Assembly (NCBI RefSeq): GCF_003790525.1
Contig: NZ_CP033635.1
Direction: 5' to 3' (one strand)
Length of the DNA stretch: 64,000 nt
Source: Escherichia coli
GTDB taxonomy: Bacteria; Pseudomonadota; Gammaproteobacteria; Enterobacterales; Enterobacteriaceae
In this document: positions 6,624-52,733 of the stretch, piece after piece
Layout of the letters: each line of letters opens with the position of its first letter
Numbering within the stretch: the stretch's first letter is position 1
Made by a program: the position numbers and the translations under genes
The notes under the pieces: model-generated
The model's input: only the letters and a program-made list of their open reading frames with translations
What the model was told of the DNA's origin: nothing
Database searches by the model: none

Positions 6624-7005
6624 TGCTGTTGTCTGCTCCTGGTAAATGCTTTTTCCTGCACTATGACACAATTTTGTGTCAGGTTGCATATACCGAAGCC
6701 GTCGGCGGGTAACATTTGTATCAATGGTTAAACGCGCAGCTTAAAAGATCAGGGATTTGCGCTATTGCATTTCGCTTAGCGACTTCGCGCCCTGGTTATG
6801 TTGAATGGCGTGGCGTTATTGCCTCTGTTCGCACCGTGGAGCGGCATACCCAGACCGTTGTATGCTTTATTTGCCGGGCGAAAGGGGATGCCCGCCATTG
6901 CGCGATATTTTATGGATGAGTTAACCACGCGGCTTGCCAACGGGGTCTGAATCGCTTTTTTTGTATATAATGCGTGTGAAATTTCATACCACAGGCGAAA
7001 CGATC

Positions 7006-13991: not shown

Positions 13992-14013
13992 AGGCGGTTT
14001 TAAGGAATAAACA

Positions 14014-15216
14014 ATGCAAAGTGTTGATGTAGCCATTGTTGGTGGCGGCATGGTGGGGCTGGCGGTTGCCTGCGGCTTACAGGGGAGCGGCTTACGCGTT
14101 GCTGTACTGGAGCAGCGCGTACCGGAACCTCTGGCGGCGGATGCACCACCACAACTGCGCGTTTCGGCTATCAATGCCGCCAGCGAAAAATTACTCACCC
14201 GTCTTGGCGTCTGGCAGGACATTCTCTCTCGTAGGGCCAGCTGTTATCACGGTATGGAAGTGTGGGACAAAGACAGTTTTGGTCACATCTCGTTTGACGA
14301 TCAAAGCATGGGCTATAGCCATCTTGGGCATATCGTTGAAAACTCAGTGATTCACTACGCGCTGTGGAACAAAGCGCAGCAGTCGTCAGATATCACTCTG
14401 TTGGCCCCCGCAGAATTACAGCAGGTCGCCTGGGGAGAAAATGAAACCTTCCTGACGTTGAAAGATGGCAGTATGTTAACGGCGCGTCTGGTGATTGGCG
14501 CGGACGGCGCTAATTCCTGGTTGCGCAACAAAGCAGATATTCCGCTGACTTTCTGGGATTATCAGCATCACGCGCTGGTAGCGACCATTCGCACGGAAGA
14601 ACCGCATGATGCGGTGGCGCGGCAGGTTTTCCATGGCGAAGGCATTCTGGCCTTTTTACCGCTTAGCGATCCGCATCTTTGCTCGATTGTCTGGTCACTG
14701 TCGTCAGAGGAAGCGCAGCGGATGCAGCAGGCAAGTGAAGACGAATTTAATCGCGCGTTAAATATCGCTTTTGATAATCGCCTGGGCTTATGCAAGGTTG
14801 AGAGCGCGCGTCAGGTGTTCCCACTGACGGGGCGTTATGCGCGCCAGTTTGCCGCGCACCGTCTGGCGCTGGTGGGCGACGCCGCGCATACCATTCACCC
14901 GCTGGCGGGGCAGGGGGTAAATCTTGGCTTTATGGATGCTGCAGAGCTGATTGCTGAACTGAAACGGTTGCATCGTCAGGGTAAAGACATCGGGCAGTAC
15001 ATTTATCTGCGTCGCTATGAGAGTAGCCGCAAGCACAGTTCGGCGCTGATGCTGGCTGGTATGCAGGGATTCCGTGATCTGTTTTCCGGTACCAATCCGG
15101 CGAAAAAACTGCTGCGTGATATTGGTTTGAAACTGGCCGACACGCTTCCTGGCGTTAAACCACAACTCATCCGCCAGGCAATGGGATTAAACGATTTGCC
15201 TGAATGGCTGCGTTAA
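14014..15216 (+). CDS. ubiI: 2-octaprenylphenol hydroxylase (FAD-dependent monooxygenase, VisC)
   Basis: 400-aa paralogue of ubiH, VAIVGGGMVGLAVA. Confidence 0.9.
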   Translation: MQSVDVAIVGGGMVGLAVACGLQGSGLRVAVLEQRVPEPLAADAPPQLRVSAINAASEKLLTRLGVWQDILSRRASCYHGMEVWDKDSFGHISFDDQSMGYSHLGHIVENSVIHYALWNKAQQSSDITLLAPAELQQVAWGENETFLTLKDGSMLTARLVIGADGANSWLRNKADIPLTFWDYQHHALVATIRTEEPHDAVARQVFHGEGILAFLPLSDPHLCSIVWSLSSEEAQRMQQASEDEFNRALNIAFDNRLGLCKVESARQVFPLTGRYARQFAAHRLALVGDAAHTIHPLAGQGVNLGFMDAAELIAELKRLHRQGKDIGQYIYLRRYESSRKHSSALMLAGMQGFRDLFSGTNPAKKLLRDIGLKLADTLPGVKPQLIRQAMGLNDLPEWLR

Positions 15217-15258
15217 AAATTTCTCTTCTGTTGTTTATTTGATACCCATCACACTTTC

Positions 15259-15288
15259 ATCTCCCGGTTTTTTCGCCGGGAGATTTTC
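15259..15288 (+). terminator. Rho-independent terminator after ubiI
   Basis: tctcccgg-ttttttcg-ccgggaga hairpin followed by tttt. Confidence 0.5.
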
Positions 15289-15299
15289 CTCATTTGAAA

Positions 15300-15662
15300 T
15301 AAACTAATTTCACCTCCGTTTTCGCATTATATTTTCTAATGCTATGATTTTTTGATTTAGTGTTTTTTGACATTTTTTTAGTTCTTAATATTGCCTTATT
15401 CAAATTAACTTTCTAATGGCATCATCTTTATATAGAAACTAGAGTGTTTTTTGGTTTTTTATTCTGTCGCGATTTTGGCGTTTTTTAACCATAAGCTAAT
15501 GTGATGATCAATTTTACCTTATGGTTAACAGTCTGTTTCGGTGGTAAGTTCAGGCAAAAGAGAACGATTGCGTTGGGGACCGGGAGTGGCTCCGATGCTG
15601 GGTTTCGTGGTGATAATTTCACCATGAAAAGTTGTCAGCCCCGCTTATTCAATGAGGACAAG
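15300..15662 (+). promoter_or_regulatory. gcvTHP promoter and upstream control region
   Basis: About 360 bp AT-rich non-coding DNA upstream of gcvT; in E. coli this region carries the gcv promoter and GcvA/Lrp/PurR/CRP sites (established knowledge; individual sites not resolved here). Confidence 0.4.
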
Positions 15663-16757
15663 ATGGCACAACAGACTCCTTTGTACGAACAACACACGCT
15701 TTGCGGCGCTCGCATGGTGGATTTCCACGGCTGGATGATGCCGCTGCATTACGGTTCGCAAATCGACGAACATCATGCGGTACGTACCGATGCCGGAATG
15801 TTTGATGTGTCACATATGACCATCGTCGATCTCCGCGGCAGCCGCACCCGGGAGTTTCTGCGTTATCTGCTGGCGAACGATGTGGCGAAGCTCACCAAAA
15901 GCGGCAAAGCCCTTTACTCGGGGATGTTGAATGCCTCTGGCGGTGTGATAGATGACCTCATCGTCTACTACTTTACTGAAGATTTCTTCCGCCTCGTTGT
16001 TAACTCCGCCACCCGCGAAAAAGACCTCTCCTGGATTACCCAACACGCTGAACCTTTCGGCATCGAAATTACCGTTCGTGATGACCTTTCCATGATCGCC
16101 GTACAAGGGCCGAATGCGCAGGCAAAAGCTGCCACACTGTTTAATGATGCTCAGCGTCAGGCGGTGGAAGGGATGAAACCGTTCTTTGGCGTGCAGGCGG
16201 GCGATCTGTTTATTGCCACCACTGGTTATACCGGTGAAGCGGGCTATGAAATTGCGCTGCCCAATGAAAAAGCGGCCGATTTCTGGCGTGCGCTGGTGGA
16301 AGCGGGTGTTAAGCCATGTGGCTTGGGCGCGCGTGACACGCTGCGTCTGGAAGCGGGCATGAATCTTTATGGTCAGGAGATGGACGAAACTATTTCTCCT
16401 TTAGCCGCCAACATGGGCTGGACTATCGCCTGGGAACCGGCAGATCGTGACTTTATCGGTCGTGAAGCCCTGGAAGTGCAGCGTGAGCATGGTACAGAAA
16501 AACTGGTTGGTCTGGTGATGACCGAAAAAGGCGTGCTGCGTAATGAACTGCCGGTACGCTTTACCGATGCGCAGGGCAACCAGCATGAAGGCATTATCAC
16601 CAGCGGTACTTTCTCCCCGACGCTGGGTTACAGCATTGCGCTGGCGCGCGTGCCGGAAGGTATTGGCGAAACGGCGATTGTGCAAATTCGCAACCGTGAA
16701 ATGCCGGTTAAAGTGACAAAACCTGTTTTTGTGCGTAACGGCAAAGCCGTCGCGTGA
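15663..16757 (+). CDS. gcvT: Glycine cleavage system T protein (aminomethyltransferase)
   Basis: ORF track 418 aa is an upstream extension; start set at [24 protein letters not shown] (364 aa). Confidence 0.9.
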
Positions 16758-16780
16758 TTTACTTTTTTGGAGATTGATTG

Positions 16781-17170
16781 ATGAGCAACGTACCAGCAGA
16801 ACTGAAATACAGCAAAGAACACGAATGGCTGCGTAAAGAAGCCGACGGCACTTACACCGTTGGTATTACCGAACATGCTCAGGAGCTGTTAGGCGATATG
16901 GTGTTTGTTGACCTGCCGGAAGTGGGCGCAACGGTTAGCGCGGGCGATGACTGCGCGGTTGCCGAATCAGTAAAAGCGGCGTCAGACATTTATGCGCCAG
17001 TAAGCGGTGAAATCGTGGCGGTAAACGACGCACTGAGCGATTCCCCGGAACTGGTGAACAGCGAACCGTATGCAGGTGGCTGGATCTTTAAAATCAAAGC
17101 CAGCGATGAAAGCGAACTGGAATCACTGCTGGATGCGACCGCATACGAAGCATTGTTAGAAGACGAGTAA
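16781..17170 (+). CDS. gcvH: Glycine cleavage system H protein (lipoyl carrier)
   Basis: [20 protein letters not shown], 129 aa; the ORF track started 3 nt earlier at a TTG. Confidence 0.9.
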
Positions 17171-17287
17171 CGGCTTTATTCCTCTTCTGCGGGAGAGGAT
17201 CAGGGTGAGGAAATTTACACCTCACCCTCACTCTCTTCGCAAGGAGAGAGGTTCACAATTCACTGCACGTTTCAGGAACCATCGCTC

Positions 17288-20161
17288 ATGACACAGACGT
17301 TAAGCCAGCTTGAAAATAGCGGCGCTTTTATTGAACGCCATATCGGACCGGACGCCGCGCAACAGCAAGAAATGCTGAATGCCGTTGGCGCACAATCGTT
17401 AAACGCGCTGACCGGCCAGATTGTACCGAAAGATATTCAGCTTGCGACCCCGCCGCAGGTTGGCGCACCGGCGACCGAATACGCCGCGCTGGCGGAACTC
17501 AAGGCTATTGCCAGTCGCAATAAACGCTTCACGTCTTACATCGGCATGGGTTACACCGCCGTGCAGTTACCGCCGGTTATCCTGCGTAACATGCTGGAAA
17601 ATCCGGGCTGGTATACCGCGTATACTCCGTATCAACCTGAAGTCTCGCAGGGCCGCCTTGAGGCACTGCTCAATTTCCAGCAGGTAACGCTGGATTTAAC
17701 CGGGCTGGATATGGCCTCTGCTTCTCTTCTTGACGAAGCCACCGCTGCCGCCGAAGCAATGGCGATGGCGAAACGCGTCAGCAAACTGAAAAATGCCAAC
17801 CGCTTCTTCGTGGCTTCCGATGTGCATCCGCAAACGCTGGATGTGGTCCGTACTCGTGCCGAAACCTTTGGTTTTGAAGTGATTGTCGATGATGCGCAAA
17901 AAGTGCTCGACCACCAGGACGTCTTCGGCGTGCTGTTACAGCAGGTTGGCACTACCGGTGAAATTCATGACTACACTGCGCTTATCAGCGAACTGAAATC
18001 ACGCAAAATTGTGGTCAGCGTCGCCGCCGATATTATGGCGCTGGTGCTGTTAACTGCGCCGGGTAAACAGGGCGCAGATATTGTCTTTGGTTCGGCGCAA
18101 CGCTTCGGCGTGCCGATGGGCTACGGTGGCCCACACGCGGCATTCTTTGCGGCGAAAGATGAATACAAACGCTCAATGCCGGGCCGTATTATCGGTGTAT
18201 CGAAAGATGCAGCTGGCAATACCGCGCTGCGCATGGCAATGCAGACTCGCGAGCAACATATTCGCCGTGAGAAAGCGAACTCCAACATTTGTACTTCCCA
18301 GGTACTGCTGGCAAACATCGCCAGCCTGTATGCCGTTTATCACGGTCCGGTTGGCCTGAAACGTATCGCTAACCGCATTCACCGTCTGACCGATATCCTG
18401 GCGGCAGGCCTGCAACAAAAAGGTCTGAAGCTGCGCCATGCGCACTATTTCGACACTCTGTGTGTGGAAGTGGCCGACAAGGCGGGCGTACTGGCGCGTG
18501 CCGAAGCGGCTGAAATCAACCTGCGTAGCGATATCCTGAACGCGGTGGGGATCACCCTTGATGAAACCACCACGCATGAAAACGTAATGCAGCTTTTCAG
18601 CGTACTACTGGGGGATAACCACGGGCTGGACATCGACACGCTGGACAAAGACGTGGCTCACGACAGCCGCTCTATCCAGCCTGCGATGCTGCGCGACGAT
18701 GAAATCCTCACCCATCCGGTGTTTAATCGCTACCACAGCGAAACCGAAATGATGCGCTATATGCACTCGCTGGAGCGTAAAGATCTGGCGCTGAATCAGG
18801 CGATGATCCCGCTGGGTTCCTGCACCATGAAACTGAACGCCGCCGCCGAGATGATCCCAATCACCTGGCCGGAATTTGCTGAACTGCACCCGTTTTGCCC
18901 GCCAGAACAGGCCGAAGGTTATCAGCAGATGATCGCGCAGCTGGCTGACTGGCTGGTGAAACTGACCGGTTACGACGCCGTTTGTATGCAGCCGAACTCC
19001 GGCGCACAGGGCGAATACGCGGGCCTGCTGGCGATTCGTCATTATCATGAAAGCCGCAACGAAGGGCATCGCGATATCTGCCTGATCCCGGCTTCTGCGC
19101 ACGGAACTAACCCCGCTTCTGCACATATGGCAGGAATGCAGGTGGTGGTTGTGGCGTGTGATAAAAATGGCAACATCGATCTGGCTGATCTGCGCGCGAA
19201 AGCGGAACAAGCGGGCGATAACCTCTCCTGTATCATGGTGACCTATCCTTCCACCCACGGCGTGTATGAAGAAACGATCCGTGAAGTGTGTGAAGTCGTG
19301 CATCAGTTCGGCGGTCAGGTTTACCTTGATGGCGCGAACATGAACGCCCAGGTCGGCATCACCTCACCGGGCTTTATTGGCGCGGACGTCTCGCACCTTA
19401 ACCTGCATAAAACTTTCTGCATTCCGCACGGTGGCGGCGGCCCTGGTATGGGACCGATCGGCGTGAAAGCGCATCTGGCACCGTTTGTGCCAGGTCATAG
19501 CGTGGTACAAATTGAAGGCATGTTAACCCGTCAGGGCGCGGTTTCTGCGGCACCGTTCGGTAGCGCATCCATTCTGCCAATCAGCTGGATGTACATCCGT
19601 ATGATGGGCGCAGAAGGGCTGAAAAAAGCAAGCCAGGTGGCAATTCTTAACGCCAACTATATTGCCAGCCGCCTGCAGGATGCTTTCCCGGTGCTGTATA
19701 CCGGTCGCGACGGTCGCGTGGCGCACGAATGTATTCTTGATATTCGTCCGCTGAAAGAAGAAACCGGCATCAGCGAACTGGATATTGCCAAGCGTCTGAT
19801 CGACTACGGTTTCCACGCGCCGACCATGTCATTCCCGGTGGCGGGTACGCTGATGGTTGAACCGACTGAATCTGAAAGCAAAGTGGAACTGGATCGCTTT
19901 ATCGACGCGATGCTGGCTATCCGCGCAGAAATTGACCAGGTGAAAGCCGGTGTCTGGCCGCTGGAAGATAACCCGCTGGTGAACGCGCCGCACATTCAGA
20001 GCGAACTGGTCGCCGAGTGGGCGCATCCGTACAGCCGTGAAGTTGCAGTATTCCCGGCAGGCGTGGCAGACAAATACTGGCCGACAGTGAAACGTCTGGA
20101 TGATGTTTACGGCGACCGTAACCTGTTCTGCTCCTGCGTACCGATTAGCGAATACCAGTAA
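17288..20161 (+). CDS. gcvP: Glycine dehydrogenase (decarboxylating), P protein
   Basis: 957-aa [25 protein letters not shown]. Confidence 0.93.
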
Positions 20162-20183
20162 TTTACTGATTCGACTATCTTCT

Positions 20184-20206
20184 AAAGGCGCTTCGGCGCC
20201 TTTTTC
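20184..20206 (+). terminator. Rho-independent terminator of gcvTHP
   Basis: aaaggcgc-ttcg-gcgccttt hairpin followed by a T-run. Confidence 0.6.
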
Positions 20207-20326
20207 GCTTGTTAATAAAGTGCGCTTTGTGTGTTTCGGCTGAGGCGTAATATAAAATATTGCGAGCTCAATATATTAAAAGAGTGCCAGGCCTGATGAG
20301 CGGAGCACATCAGGCACATCGGCTAA

Positions 20327-21787
<1,461 letters not shown>

Positions 21788-21804
21788 TTACAGGAAATAG
21801 TACC

Positions 21805-22116
21805 ATGCAGCCAAACGACATCACTTTTTTTCAACGTTTCCAGGATGACATTCTGGCTGGGCGTAAAACCATCACCATCCGCGACGAGTCTGAATCGCAC
21901 TTCAAAACGGGTGATGTGCTTCGTGTCGGACGGTTTGAAGATGACGGTTATTTTTGCACGATTGAAGTTACCGCAACCTCAACCGTAACGCTGGATACGC
22001 TGACGGAAAAACATGCAGAGCAGGAAAATATGACCCTGACTGAACTGAAAAAGGTCATTGCCGACATCTATCCCGACCAGACACAGTTTTATGTGATTGA
22101 ATTTAAATGCCTTTAA
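21805..22116 (+). CDS. yqfB: ASCH-domain protein YqfB (N4-acetylcytidine amidohydrolase family)
   Basis: 103-aa [31 protein letters not shown]. Confidence 0.85.
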
Positions 22117-22204
22117 ATTGAACTCACGCCTGTTAGTTGAAATTTCGCATTTAATTTCATGATTTTTCAGAGATTAATCTCAAATCTGAATTTATTTTAG
22201 CTAA

Positions 22205-22939
<735 letters not shown>

Positions 22940-22952
22940 TTGGTGTTCCTTT

Positions 22953-23009
22953 GTAGGCATGATAAGACGCGTCAGCGTCGCATCAGGCGATAAATGCCTG
23001 ATGCGATAC
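22953..23009. repeat. REP (repetitive extragenic palindromic) element, about 1.5 copies
   Basis: gtaggcatgataagacgcgtcagcgtcgcatcaggc followed by a partial gcctgatgcg; matches the E. coli REP consensus. Confidence 0.6.
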
Positions 23010-23015
23010 AGAGAT

Positions 23016-23996
23016 TTACTCTTCGAGCGAATACGGCAGTGGCTCGATACGCAATGTATTCGCATCGTCACGCACGCGGAAGATGCTGTCCGGTTCCATA
23101 TCGTTATTCATGACGACCTGTACCACGACCTGACCATCTTCCAGTTTTACCGCAGCCAGCACCGTACCGGTACGACGCCAGTTCTCGCCCATTTTCAGCT
23201 CTAAATCTTCACCAGCTTCCGGCAGTCGGCTGGCACTACCTGCCAGCAACCAGAGCGCGCGTTTGTTGGCACCGCGGAATTTGGCCCGCGCCACCATCTC
23301 TTGTCCGGTATAGCATCCTTTCTTAAAGCTGATGCCGCCCAGCGCCTGGAGGTTGGTCGCCTGTGGGATAAACTGCCCGCTGTTGGCGGCATCAATCACC
23401 GGGAAACCCGCTTCAATGTTTAATGCCAGCCACTGTTGGCTATTGTTCAGTTCCGCTTCACCGCGCAGTTTATCGGTCAGCATATTGGCAGTGGCTTCAT
23501 CGGTTACGATCAGGAAACGTTCTGCCGGGTGTTCAAACCATAGCAAAGTGGTCGCGCCTTCTTTAACTACCTGTTTTTCTTTCGAAGGCAGTTCACTAAA
23601 GATATTTGCCAGCGCGGCGCGCGCCTGAAAACCGGCAACACCAAGCAGCACACGCTCGTCGTCTGGCGCGATGGTCACTTTAGAGAATACCGCATATTTT
23701 TTCAGTTCAGTCAGCTGCGATTCACGCACGCTGCGCCGTTCAATCCATGCAAAGCCATCGCCGTCGCGGAACAGACGTAAATTGCTCCACATTTTACCTT
23801 TGGCGTCGCAATGGGCGGCGAGCAGGTGCTGATCTTCTGTCATCTGGCTGACATCTGCTGTCACCTGACCCTGCATATATTTTTCGCTGTCCGCGCCAGT
23901 AATGGCGGCAAGCGCCCAGTCATCAAGCGTCATCAGCGTCAGTGGCAAACGGGCAGAAGCCGTAGGCTGACGGGGAGGAAAAGGTGTAAAAGCCAT
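23016..23996 (-). CDS. ygfZ: Folate-binding protein YgfZ (Fe-S cluster repair/assembly)
   Basis: 326-aa [33 protein letters not shown]. Confidence 0.9.
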
Positions 23997-24226
23997 AATA
24001 GAGTCCTGAGTTGCTTAACGGCGTATTAATGACTAATGGTAAAAGAGCTATGAGGCAATGCAAGTGCTTTCACTACGCGATCTGTGCCTTCTGCGAGGCG
24101 ACTTCCAAAAAAATGAAGCCCTTGAATTGTTGTGAATTAATTTCGCGATCGCGATTGTGTTTACTGATATTCCCGTAAAAGAAGTCGAAAAACACGTTAC
24201 AATAGCGGGGTACTGGATTTTCGTGA

Positions 24227-24893
<667 letters not shown>

Positions 24894-24932
24894 AGATGAC
24901 GGCAAAGCATATGTGCTAAGCCGTCAGTGACA

Positions 24933-25454
24933 TCAGGCGTAATGCTCTGCCATTTCGTTGAGGATTTGCTCGCACCAGCTCTGAATACGCTCGTCGCTAA
25001 GGTCATACTGGTTAGTTTCATCCAGCGCCAGACCCACGAACAGTTGCCCGTCAGCAATCACCGGTTTCGGACTGGTAAATTCATATCCTTCCGTTGGCCA
25101 GTAGCCGACGAACTTCACGCCTTTGGTCGAGAGTTTGTCATGCAGCATACCGAGCGCATCGAGGAACCACTCGCCGTATCCCAGTTGATCGCCAAGCCCA
25201 TACAGCGCAACAATTTTACCTTCGAGGTTCAGGTCGTCGAGCTGATCCCAGACGGCTTCCCAGTCTTCCTGGATTTCACCAAAATCCCAGGTCGGGATAC
25301 CCAGAATGAGCACATCGTACTGCTCCATTAATTTCGGGGAGTCGTCCTTGAGGTTATGTAAGGTCACCAGTTCTGGGCCGATAATATCGCGGATTTTTTC
25401 TGCCGCCATTTCGGTGTAACAGGTGCTGGAACCGTAAAAAAGACCCATATTCAT
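24933..25454 (-). CDS. fldB: Flavodoxin 2
   Basis: 173-aa [26 protein letters not shown]. Confidence 0.9.
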
Positions 25455-25565
25455 AACGTAAGCTTCTCGATTCTGCTGTGGCTTTTGCGGCTAGTGTATC
25501 AGAATCGCTTTAGTCACGGCACAATAAGGCATAATGGATCAAATGAGTGACCATAAGGGGCGCAA

Positions 25566-26462
25566 GTGAAACAGGATCTGTCACGCATCGAGCAGTTTCT
25601 TGATGCTCTGTGGCTGGAAAAAAATCTGGCTGAAAATACGTTGAACGCTTACCGTCGCGATCTGTCAATGATGGTGGAGTGGTTGCATCACCGCGGGTTG
25701 ACGCTGGCGACGGCGCAAAGTGACGATTTGCAGGCATTACTGGCAGAACGGCTGGAGGGCGGGTATAAAGCCACCAGCTCAGCGCGTTTGCTGAGTGCAG
25801 TGCGCCGATTGTTCCAGTATCTTTATCGCGAAAAGTTTCGTGAAGACGATCCCAGTGCGCATCTCGCTTCACCGAAATTGCCCCAGCGTTTGCCAAAAGA
25901 TTTAAGCGAAGCGCAGGTCGAACGTTTATTACAGGCACCATTAATTGATCAGCCACTGGAGCTACGCGATAAAGCCATGCTTGAAGTGTTGTATGCTACC
26001 GGGCTGCGTGTCTCTGAACTGGTCGGGCTGACAATGAGTGATATCAGCCTGCGTCAGGGCGTAGTGCGGGTCATTGGTAAAGGCAACAAAGAGCGCCTGG
26101 TGCCGTTAGGTGAAGAGGCGGTTTACTGGCTGGAAACGTATCTCGAGCATGGGCGACCGTGGCTGCTGAATGGTGTGTCAATTGACGTGTTGTTCCCCAG
26201 TCAGCGTGCGCAGCAGATGACGCGACAGACCTTCTGGCACCGCATTAAACATTATGCCGTGCTGGCGGGGATCGACAGCGAAAAGCTGTCACCGCATGTG
26301 TTGCGTCACGCTTTTGCCACTCACTTATTAAATCATGGTGCGGATTTACGCGTGGTGCAGATGCTACTGGGCCACAGCGATCTCTCCACCACGCAAATTT
26401 ATACGCATGTCGCTACCGAGCGTCTGCGGCAACTTCATCAACAGCATCACCCGCGGGCGTGA
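25566..26462 (+). CDS. xerD: Site-specific tyrosine recombinase XerD
   Basis: 298-aa ORF with GTG start; C-terminal HVLRHAFATHLLNHGADLRVVQMLLGHSDLSTTQIYTHV catalytic region. Confidence 0.92.
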   Translation: MKQDLSRIEQFLDALWLEKNLAENTLNAYRRDLSMMVEWLHHRGLTLATAQSDDLQALLAERLEGGYKATSSARLLSAVRRLFQYLYREKFREDDPSAHLASPKLPQRLPKDLSEAQVERLLQAPLIDQPLELRDKAMLEVLYATGLRVSELVGLTMSDISLRQGVVRVIGKGNKERLVPLGEEAVYWLETYLEHGRPWLLNGVSIDVLFPSQRAQQMTRQTFWHRIKHYAVLAGIDSEKLSPHVLRHAFATHLLNHGADLRVVQMLLGHSDLSTTQIYTHVATERLRQLHQQHHPRA

Positions 26463-52699: not shown

Positions 52700-52733
52700 A
52701 ATGGCCGGATGGTATTACCCATCCGGCCTTTAA
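52700..52733. terminator. Bidirectional terminator hairpin between convergent yqeB and yqeA
   Basis: ggccggatgg-tatta-cccatccggcc hairpin flanked by A/T runs. Confidence 0.5.

Follow-up and report, generated by a model that had tools for sequence, protein, structure and literature searches.

A probable REP-associated loss of ygfF as a common presence/absence polymorphism at the gcvP-bglA locus of Escherichia coli

In Escherichia coli K-12 MG1655 the genes bglA (b2901, + strand), ygfF (b2902, - strand) and gcvP (b2903, - strand) are adjacent, with a gap of 1066 bp between bglA and gcvP. In the stretch of E. coli DNA analysed here (64,000 nucleotides, hereafter the window) the same two flanking genes are convergent and lie only 165 bp apart. 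This raises the question of what became of ygfF, what now fills the space between its neighbors, and whether the arrangement is a peculiarity of one strain. A first-pass annotation, made from the letters alone, had started from the K-12 gene order given above and proposed that ygfF is absent here, with a terminator and a REP-like hairpin left between the two genes. This gene order was right, and K-12, the genome that it had suggested checking for the 165-bp junction, proved to differ in having the 1066-bp interval with ygfF. We resolved the window, from gcvP to bglA, into the following features:

17288-20161, + strand: gcvP (glycine dehydrogenase, 957 aa), the last gene of gcvTHP, from the ORF list and the annotated gcvP of matching genomes
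20184-20205, + strand: predicted intrinsic terminator of gcvP, hairpin AAAGGCGC TTCG GCGCCTTT followed by TT, from folding; the last block in common with K-12
20209-20234, + strand: putative B-like outer flank of an inverted BIME-1-type repeat, TTGTTAATAAAGTGCGCTTTGTGTGT, from alignment
20235-20250, + strand: putative remnant of a Y-type REP, TTCGGCTGAGGCGTAA, without about 14 nt of its right arm, from alignment to the intact Y REP of loci L087 and L090 and to the published Y consensus
20251-20286, + strand: putative L-type BIME linker with the core TGCGAGCTCAATATATT, from alignment
20287-20316, + strand: Z1-type REP holding the hairpin of the first-pass annotation, from pattern search, folding and alignment to the REP consensus; candidate deletion junction
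20317-20326, + strand: bglA-proximal flank CATCGGCTAA, common to alleles with ygfF
20327-21766, - strand: bglA (6-phospho-beta-glucosidase A), convergent with gcvP, from tblastn and the annotation of matching genomes

The stop codon of gcvP (TAA) occupies positions 20159-20161 and that of bglA positions 20327-20329, and the spacer of 20162-20326 is exactly 165 bp long, the figure that had been given for it. The window's gcvP is 97-98% identical to that of K-12, and K-12 BglA aligns with 99% identity over 479 aa (21766 to 20330 on the minus strand, tblastn). In contrast, tblastn with the K-12 YgfF protein found no match across the entire 64-kb window (E<=1e-3), which bears out the proposed absence of the gene, and no SDR ORF related to it lies between gcvP and bglA. 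In a megablast comparison, homology to K-12 ends at 20205, just past the terminator, and resumes at 20327, at the bglA stop codon, 121 bp of the window thus corresponding to 1022 bp of K-12. Shuffle-tested local alignments of this 121-bp segment with the K-12 insert detected no remnant of ygfF on either strand (z <= 1.2; z = 0.3 for the segment against the insert), and a scan of 14000-26000 with Rfam returned no family at the gathering score. To judge from these comparisons the window is a ygfF-null haplotype. It is otherwise collinear with K-12 over the full 64 kb at 97-98% identity with only four indels, and ygfF is the sole difference in intact gene content between the two.

Elsewhere along the window we noted three differences of length. 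At 6825 it misses 44 bp that are present in K-12 (3059507-3059550, in the yqfE pseudogene) and in strain GN03551, where the segment is annotated as a hypothetical protein; identity to GN03551 is 99.5% downstream of this point and 97.9% upstream of it, a drop that suggests a recombination boundary. K-12 is longer by about 119 bp in the trhA-ygfZ spacer (window 22955-22988) and by about 180 bp in the yqeA-yqeB spacer (window 52702-52729), the latter of which has a short REP-like hairpin in the window (GCCGGATGGTATTACCCATCCGGC, 52704-52727).

The part of the spacer in common with K-12 contains the terminator that had been claimed for gcvP, and folding bore this claim out at 20184-20205. Both the MFE and the centroid structure give the hairpin a stem of 8 bp, in which the core GGCGC/GCGCC is extended by A-U pairs around a UUCG loop; the hairpin is accompanied by a TTTTT run and begins 22 nt past the gcvP stop codon. 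A GC-rich stem-loop succeeded by a U run after a stop codon is the form expected of a rho-independent terminator, as which we predict it to act. A promoter and terminator consensus scan of 19900-20600 flagged nothing, although folding brings out the hairpin; the scanner missed it probably because the A-U pairs consume part of the T run. The same hairpin occurs in K-12, E. albertii, Citrobacter sp. FP75 and Enterobacter sp. Bisph1, and the haplotype without ygfF leaves the gcvTHP terminator untouched.

Beyond the terminator the window and K-12 part ways, despite having the same flanking genes. In K-12 this segment comprises a dispersed G-rich palindromic repeat, a decayed second terminator, ygfF and another REP-like hairpin. 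A B-like flank is retained directly after the K-12 terminator (GATGACAAAGTAC), and beyond the G-rich repeat lie the end of an A flank, the decayed second terminator and the ribosome-binding site of ygfF (z = 7.5). We take the G-rich repeat to resemble the 'Box C' family, and use A and B as the flank names of the BIME literature. The repeat is the one that PMC5100583 lists as a G-quadruplex/hairpin motif lying between ygfF and gcvP.

The first-pass annotation had described the spacer as a terminator plus a REP-like hairpin, and both elements are real. To this has to be added that, on the alignment evidence, all of the 121-bp segment foreign to K-12, beyond the hairpin as well, is a decayed BIME-1-type repeat, comprising a B-like flank, a truncated Y REP, an L linker and a Z1 REP. 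When window positions 20206-20326 were aligned to the reverse complement of the BIME unit in locus L087, from a cryptic Escherichia, about 108 columns were matched with z = 11.3, a score reached by 0 of 500 shuffles; the inverted unit of E. coli RMDEC465 gave z = 9.4, and a haplotype with an outer-membrane-protein-like (OMP-like) gene, locus L099, gave z = 13.8. The B-like flank aligns to the reverse complement of the flank beside the Y REP in loci L087 and L090 and matches the L099 haplotype at 24/24 positions. The linker aligns to TGCAAATTCAATATATT of L087 and TGCAAATTCAATACATT of L090 (reverse complement) as well as to the linker of L099, and its TCAATATATT core resembles the linker of intact copies.

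The hairpin beside bglA, GCCTGATG-AGCGGAGCA-CATCAGGC, is supported by both folding and pattern search, with the correction that it ends at 20315 rather than at 20316. Its arms (20291-20298 and 20308-20315) form an 8-bp stem and fit the palindrome GCC(G/T)GATG ... CATC(A/C)GGC; the 71-nt stretch that contains it folds at -20.4 kcal/mol (z = -2.6), with 2/200 shuffles folding as well. Compared by eye, the REP is identical at 24/29 positions to a Z1-type copy at the tkt locus (L096), and its score against the Z2 consensus published for E. coli exceeds that against the Y consensus (PMC2817692, Table 1). The GT(A/G)G head tetranucleotide of REPs (PMC2817692) is replaced by CCAG at 20287-20290, which matches at 2/4 bases and is consistent with a decayed Z1 REP copy. 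The element is extragenic, between two stop codons, and belongs to a multi-copy family: an intact homologous BIME unit occurs at a median of 26 places per E. coli genome, while the window's own copy, in the distant mode of blastn, finds one place per genome, as it is too decayed to find other copies. The two REPs stand in alternating orientation with the L linker between them, as in BIME-1. Of the two outer flanks of a BIME-1, the B-like one is present and the A flank absent; the bglA flank directly adjoins the Z1 REP in its place, the A flank being missing, as we read it, because the element was cut at the Z1 REP.

A misassembly, or a relocation of ygfF within the genome, was considered as an explanation. 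Of the 5426 complete E. coli genomes, all but one match the flanks of the locus. The 131-bp short junction is found exactly once in each of 2349 of them (43%), with an identity of at least 99% in 1276, of 95-99% in 649 and lower in 423 more (84-89% in the four rows listed for this divergent class). The ygfF coding sequence is found in 3057 genomes, in 3053 of these (56% of all) at a coverage of at least 80%, and the full K-12-type interval in 3025. Together with 17 genomes of a third content, the 3053 and 2349 account for 5419/5426. No support was found for an artefact: the identical junction in 2349 independently assembled genomes argues against misassembly, and the 3061 places of the coding sequence in its 3057 genomes, one or two chromosomal places in each and none on plasmids, indicate that ygfF has not moved elsewhere. 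Moreover, the listed genomes without ygfF match the K-12 interval only through its repeat part. We give an artefact practically no credence.

The first-pass annotation was right that this genome is without ygfF. The absence goes well beyond a single strain: it is a major and old haplotype, part of ordinary strain-to-strain variation. Named strains without the gene include E. coli C, O157:H7, O55:H7, APEC O18, ST648 and an APEC O78:H4, and those with it include K-12, HB101, a BL21 derivative, O111 strains and PCN033; Shigella flexneri and S. boydii are named as sources of YgfF proteins, too. The short allele presumably predominates, if not strictly, outside phylogroups A and B1, going by the phylogroups of the named strains rather than by a tree. 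The literature searched under the name ygfF did not describe a presence/absence polymorphism of the gene.

The direction of the change was addressed with outgroups, by a contig scan with the GcvP C-terminus, which yielded about 15 useful Enterobacterales loci and one short E. albertii contig among the matches listed, most of which come from distant taxa; E. fergusonii, E. marmotae and Salmonella fall outside this sample. Among the matches listed, ygfF lies downstream of gcvP on the same strand in 10/10 loci with a full-length YgfF, from Citrobacter to Yersinia, and in 7/10 it starts 64-220 bp past the gcvP stop codon (Citrobacter werkmanii, Citrobacter sp. FP75, Enterobacter cloacae, Superficieibacter, Rahnella and Enterobacter sp. 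Ag1 belong to this class). In Yersinia artesiana and Enterobacter sp. BIGb0383 it follows at 0.8-3.2 kb, beyond inserted DNA. The convergent bglA comes after ygfF in Citrobacter, and in Citrobacter sp. FP75 a terminator hairpin of the E. coli type leads straight into the ygfF ribosome-binding site. This plain layout recurs in E. coli 2013C-4282, 2020CK-00188 and at least 14 more genomes, and ygfF is in place in the cryptic Escherichia GCA_004323655.1, which is 93-95% identical to E. coli.

These observations bear on the converse explanation, namely that the short junction is ancestral and that ygfF was inserted in the lineage of K-12. An insertion would account for the 121-bp segment having no detectable ygfF coding remnant, for the dispersed G-rich repeat beside ygfF in K-12, and for E. 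albertii, which also has no ygfF right after gcvP. It sits poorly with the position of the gene in all ten outgroup loci among the matches listed, with the conservation of the terminator-to-RBS layout of Citrobacter sp. FP75 in cryptic Escherichia and some E. coli, and with the identity of outgroup YgfF, which is lower the more distant the taxon, at 83% in Citrobacter and 75% in Yersinia; integrase, IS and tRNA signatures are absent as well. A gain in the K-12 lineage is, on this evidence, very improbable. The position directly downstream of gcvP is, by outgroup comparison, the ancestral state of ygfF, from which it follows that the window carries a loss allele; that this is a common allele which has lost an ancestral gene we regard as nearly certain.

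Independent deletions of ygfF were seen in two of the outgroups. Mangrovibacter yixingensis (L015 6751-6916) retains the ribosome-binding site and the first ~8 codons (ATGAAAATAGCACTGGTGACTGGT), and Enterobacter sp. Bisph1 (L006 6751-7037) only the last 62 codons, and ygfF is therefore repeatedly dispensable. Like the E. coli short allele, they have lost the gene from the same gcvP-bglA interval; they differ in their breakpoints and in having left coding remnants, of which the E. coli allele has none.

The BIME of the window has relatives at the same locus in alleles that retain ygfF. Nine E. coli genomes, for example RMDEC465, ws5-3 and 06-00048, and the cryptic Escherichia have a BIME unit between gcvP and ygfF in the order terminator hairpin, A flank, Z1 REP, L linker, Y REP, B flank, terminator hairpin and ygfF ribosome-binding site. 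We further observed that BIME-1-type units are bracketed by copies of the local terminator hairpin, with tandem duplication possible (L087 2596-3000; L090 1557-1789; L096 1485-1860). The cryptic Escherichia has two units with three hairpins after gcvP; in strain 118UI, two units whose hairpin differs (GGGCCGCTTTCGCGGCCC) lie between tkt and a gene of the prohibitin family; and insertions with TGATGACAAAG-like ends after gcvP, bracketed by duplicated gcvP terminators, occur in Enterobacter sp. Ag1 and Yersinia artesiana (L012, L014). We consider it possible, though not likely, that a BIME-1 unit, on inserting at an intrinsic terminator, duplicates the entire hairpin. In E. coli 2017-02-2CC (L093 1130-2642) an IS621 (IS110 family) sits in the Z1 REP tail of the gcvP-ygfF BIME, in keeping with the known preference of this element for REP targets (PMC3184786).

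An inverted BIME, in the orientation of the window, is found in a third haplotype. E. albertii NBRC 107761 (L002 2464-2787) has such a unit complete with the A flank, scoring z = 14.5 against the inverted BIME and z = 0.1 against the direct one, and 17 E. coli genomes likewise have an inverted BIME with its A flank. In these 17 the BIME is succeeded by an AT-rich stretch and the OMP-like gene (Pfam PF13557 Phenol_MetA_deg; L099 3829-5223 in E. coli SWHEFF_68, with 16 other genomes), with no ygfF. The gene is split by an in-frame TAG into a 45-aa part with the signal peptide and an annotated CDS of 249 aa. E. albertii aligns to this haplotype (z = 33) up to the end of its contig, NZ_BBMY01000029.1, which stops 324 bp past gcvP, and the OMP haplotype thus appears to be common to E. 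albertii. We had considered whether the E. albertii junction is the same short allele as that of the window and rejected this, as it keeps the A flank and runs on into the OMP haplotype.

The interval accordingly has three alternative contents, namely ygfF, an interrupted OMP-like gene or nothing, in at least five spacer architectures. The short allele itself points to one origin, since the four that we examined (the window and three of the divergent class) have the same truncation of the Y REP and the same junction. In the window, the match to the inverted BIME breaks off at CATCAGGCA, which is the right arm of the Z1 REP. The 17-nt flank that follows, through the bglA stop codon, agrees with cryptic Escherichia at 15/17 positions and with PCN033 at 14/17, as against 11/17 for K-12 and 8/17 for the OMP haplotype. 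In alleles with ygfF this flank comes after a REP-like hairpin with the right arm CATCCGGC. Because such alleles also carry a hairpin there, one beside bglA is not by itself a deletion scar. The first-pass annotation had placed a REP hairpin at the junction, and this was confirmed, both by the match to the tkt-locus copy and by its position where homology switches from the BIME to the bglA flank.

We read the course of events as follows. The comparisons show an ancestral order of gcvP, terminator, ribosome-binding site, ygfF, a REP-like hairpin and the convergent bglA. In Escherichia, a BIME-1-type repeat came to lie between terminator and ygfF, with a copy of the terminator hairpin on either side. 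The window retains the gcvP terminator and this BIME, inverted and with a truncated Y REP. We propose that a single deletion of about 0.85 kb (~855 bp), with both ends in REP-type hairpins, then took place. With it would have gone the A flank, the second copy of the terminator, ygfF together with its ribosome-binding site, and the larger part of the hairpin near bglA. The resulting allele would have spread and is now present in 43% of complete E. coli genomes. An intact parent, with inverted BIME, second terminator and ygfF, was not found in the 5426 E. coli genomes; a search with a synthetic parent gave full-length matches to direct-orientation alleles only, at 80-84% identity, and also brought up the plain terminator-RBS-ygfF allele. 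For want of a parental allele, we present the inversion step and the REP-to-REP crossover as reconstructions.

This leaves room for a loss unrelated to REPs, or for a derivation of the short allele from the OMP haplotype or from other recombination between haplotypes, with the Z1 REP merely adjoining the breakpoint. The missing parent would be explained in this way, as would the left part of the spacer, which is nearly identical to the OMP haplotype (its B flank completely so). Between the hairpin arms the microhomology, CATC(A/C)GGC, is imperfect and no longer than 8 nt, and the losses in Mangrovibacter and Enterobacter sp. Bisph1 came about with no REP at the junction. Against it, BIME homology extends precisely to where the Z1 REP right arm finishes, and the match to the bglA flank of ygfF-containing alleles starts at that very point; moreover, the right flank agrees at 14-15/17 positions with such alleles and at 8/17 with the OMP haplotype. 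We consider such an origin possible, if rather doubtful. In strain 19KM1831 we noted a chimeric-looking hairpin with the left arm GCCTGATG and the right arm CATCCGGC, which was weighed as proof of a crossover and then downgraded, because a later recombination tract explains it equally well. Placing both deletion breakpoints in REP hairpins is, on balance, the reading that we lean towards, and we think it likely that the explanation as a whole, an old and common presence/absence polymorphism of ygfF that arose by a single REP-to-REP deletion, is correct.

In the copies examined ygfF is intact throughout and under purifying selection (dN/dS ~0.06), and intact alleles within E. coli differ by up to 10% of nucleotides. 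Its mean dS is 0.29 within E. coli and 0.33 against cryptic Escherichia, as compared to 0.10 and 0.19 for the adjacent 600 nt of gcvP; these values come from L001, L085, L090, L091, L092, L097 and L098 against L087, a set chosen for divergence, and they overstate the typical diversity. In E. coli PCN033 (L085 1467) the start codon of ygfF is TTG rather than ATG, and the gene is otherwise intact. The gcvP-bglA interval could be seen as a multi-allelic micro-hotspot of long standing, in whose maintenance selection may have a part beside drift, a view to which we attach little probability. The locus is mildly unusual in the number of its coexisting haplotypes, in the deep synonymous divergence of ygfF and in the duplicated terminator hairpins that bracket its BIME units.

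In vitro, the SDR enzyme YgfF acts as a glucose 1-dehydrogenase (PMC10645960), an assignment that has been accepted as a correct prediction (PMC12506659). A strain with the short haplotype has no YgfF, and the 3' end of its bglA abuts the Z1 REP hairpin instead of the hairpin of strains with ygfF; REPs can affect mRNA stability (PMC3184786). The gene is dispensable in nature, and close to half of the E. coli sequenced, O157:H7, ST648 and APEC O18 strains among them, do without it, which is useful to know when annotations, metabolic models or knockout phenotypes are transferred from K-12 to other strains. The locus could furthermore serve as a simple PCR-size marker for the major haplotype groups. 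Though of little bearing on biology at large, it is a compact example of how REP/BIME repeats next to a terminator go together with inversion, tandem duplication, IS621 insertion and gene loss.

A strain-variable deletion at an intergenic site rich in REPs and BIMEs is an already known kind of E. coli polymorphism. Shyamala et al. in 1990 are said to have found REP sequences at the join points of duplications in Salmonella. Bachellier et al. in 1997, a work among the references of PMC2817692, reportedly named BIMEs one of the major sources of polymorphism between the genes of E. coli. BIMEs have been linked to recombination and bind IHF and gyrase (PMC3184786). Compared with the BIME-1 and REP elements themselves, the window's copy has the Y REP, L linker and Z1 REP, is extragenic between convergent genes, and is homologous to intact copies at the same locus in other Escherichia as well as similar to those at the tkt locus; it differs in its decay, with a Y REP short of about 14 nt, the head CCAG and no A flank. 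With the known REP/BIME-associated polymorphisms it has in common a strain-variable intergenic structure and breakpoints that seem to lie in REP hairpins, whereas here a whole conserved gene has been removed, the allele has reached 43% of genomes, and the crossover is one that we infer.
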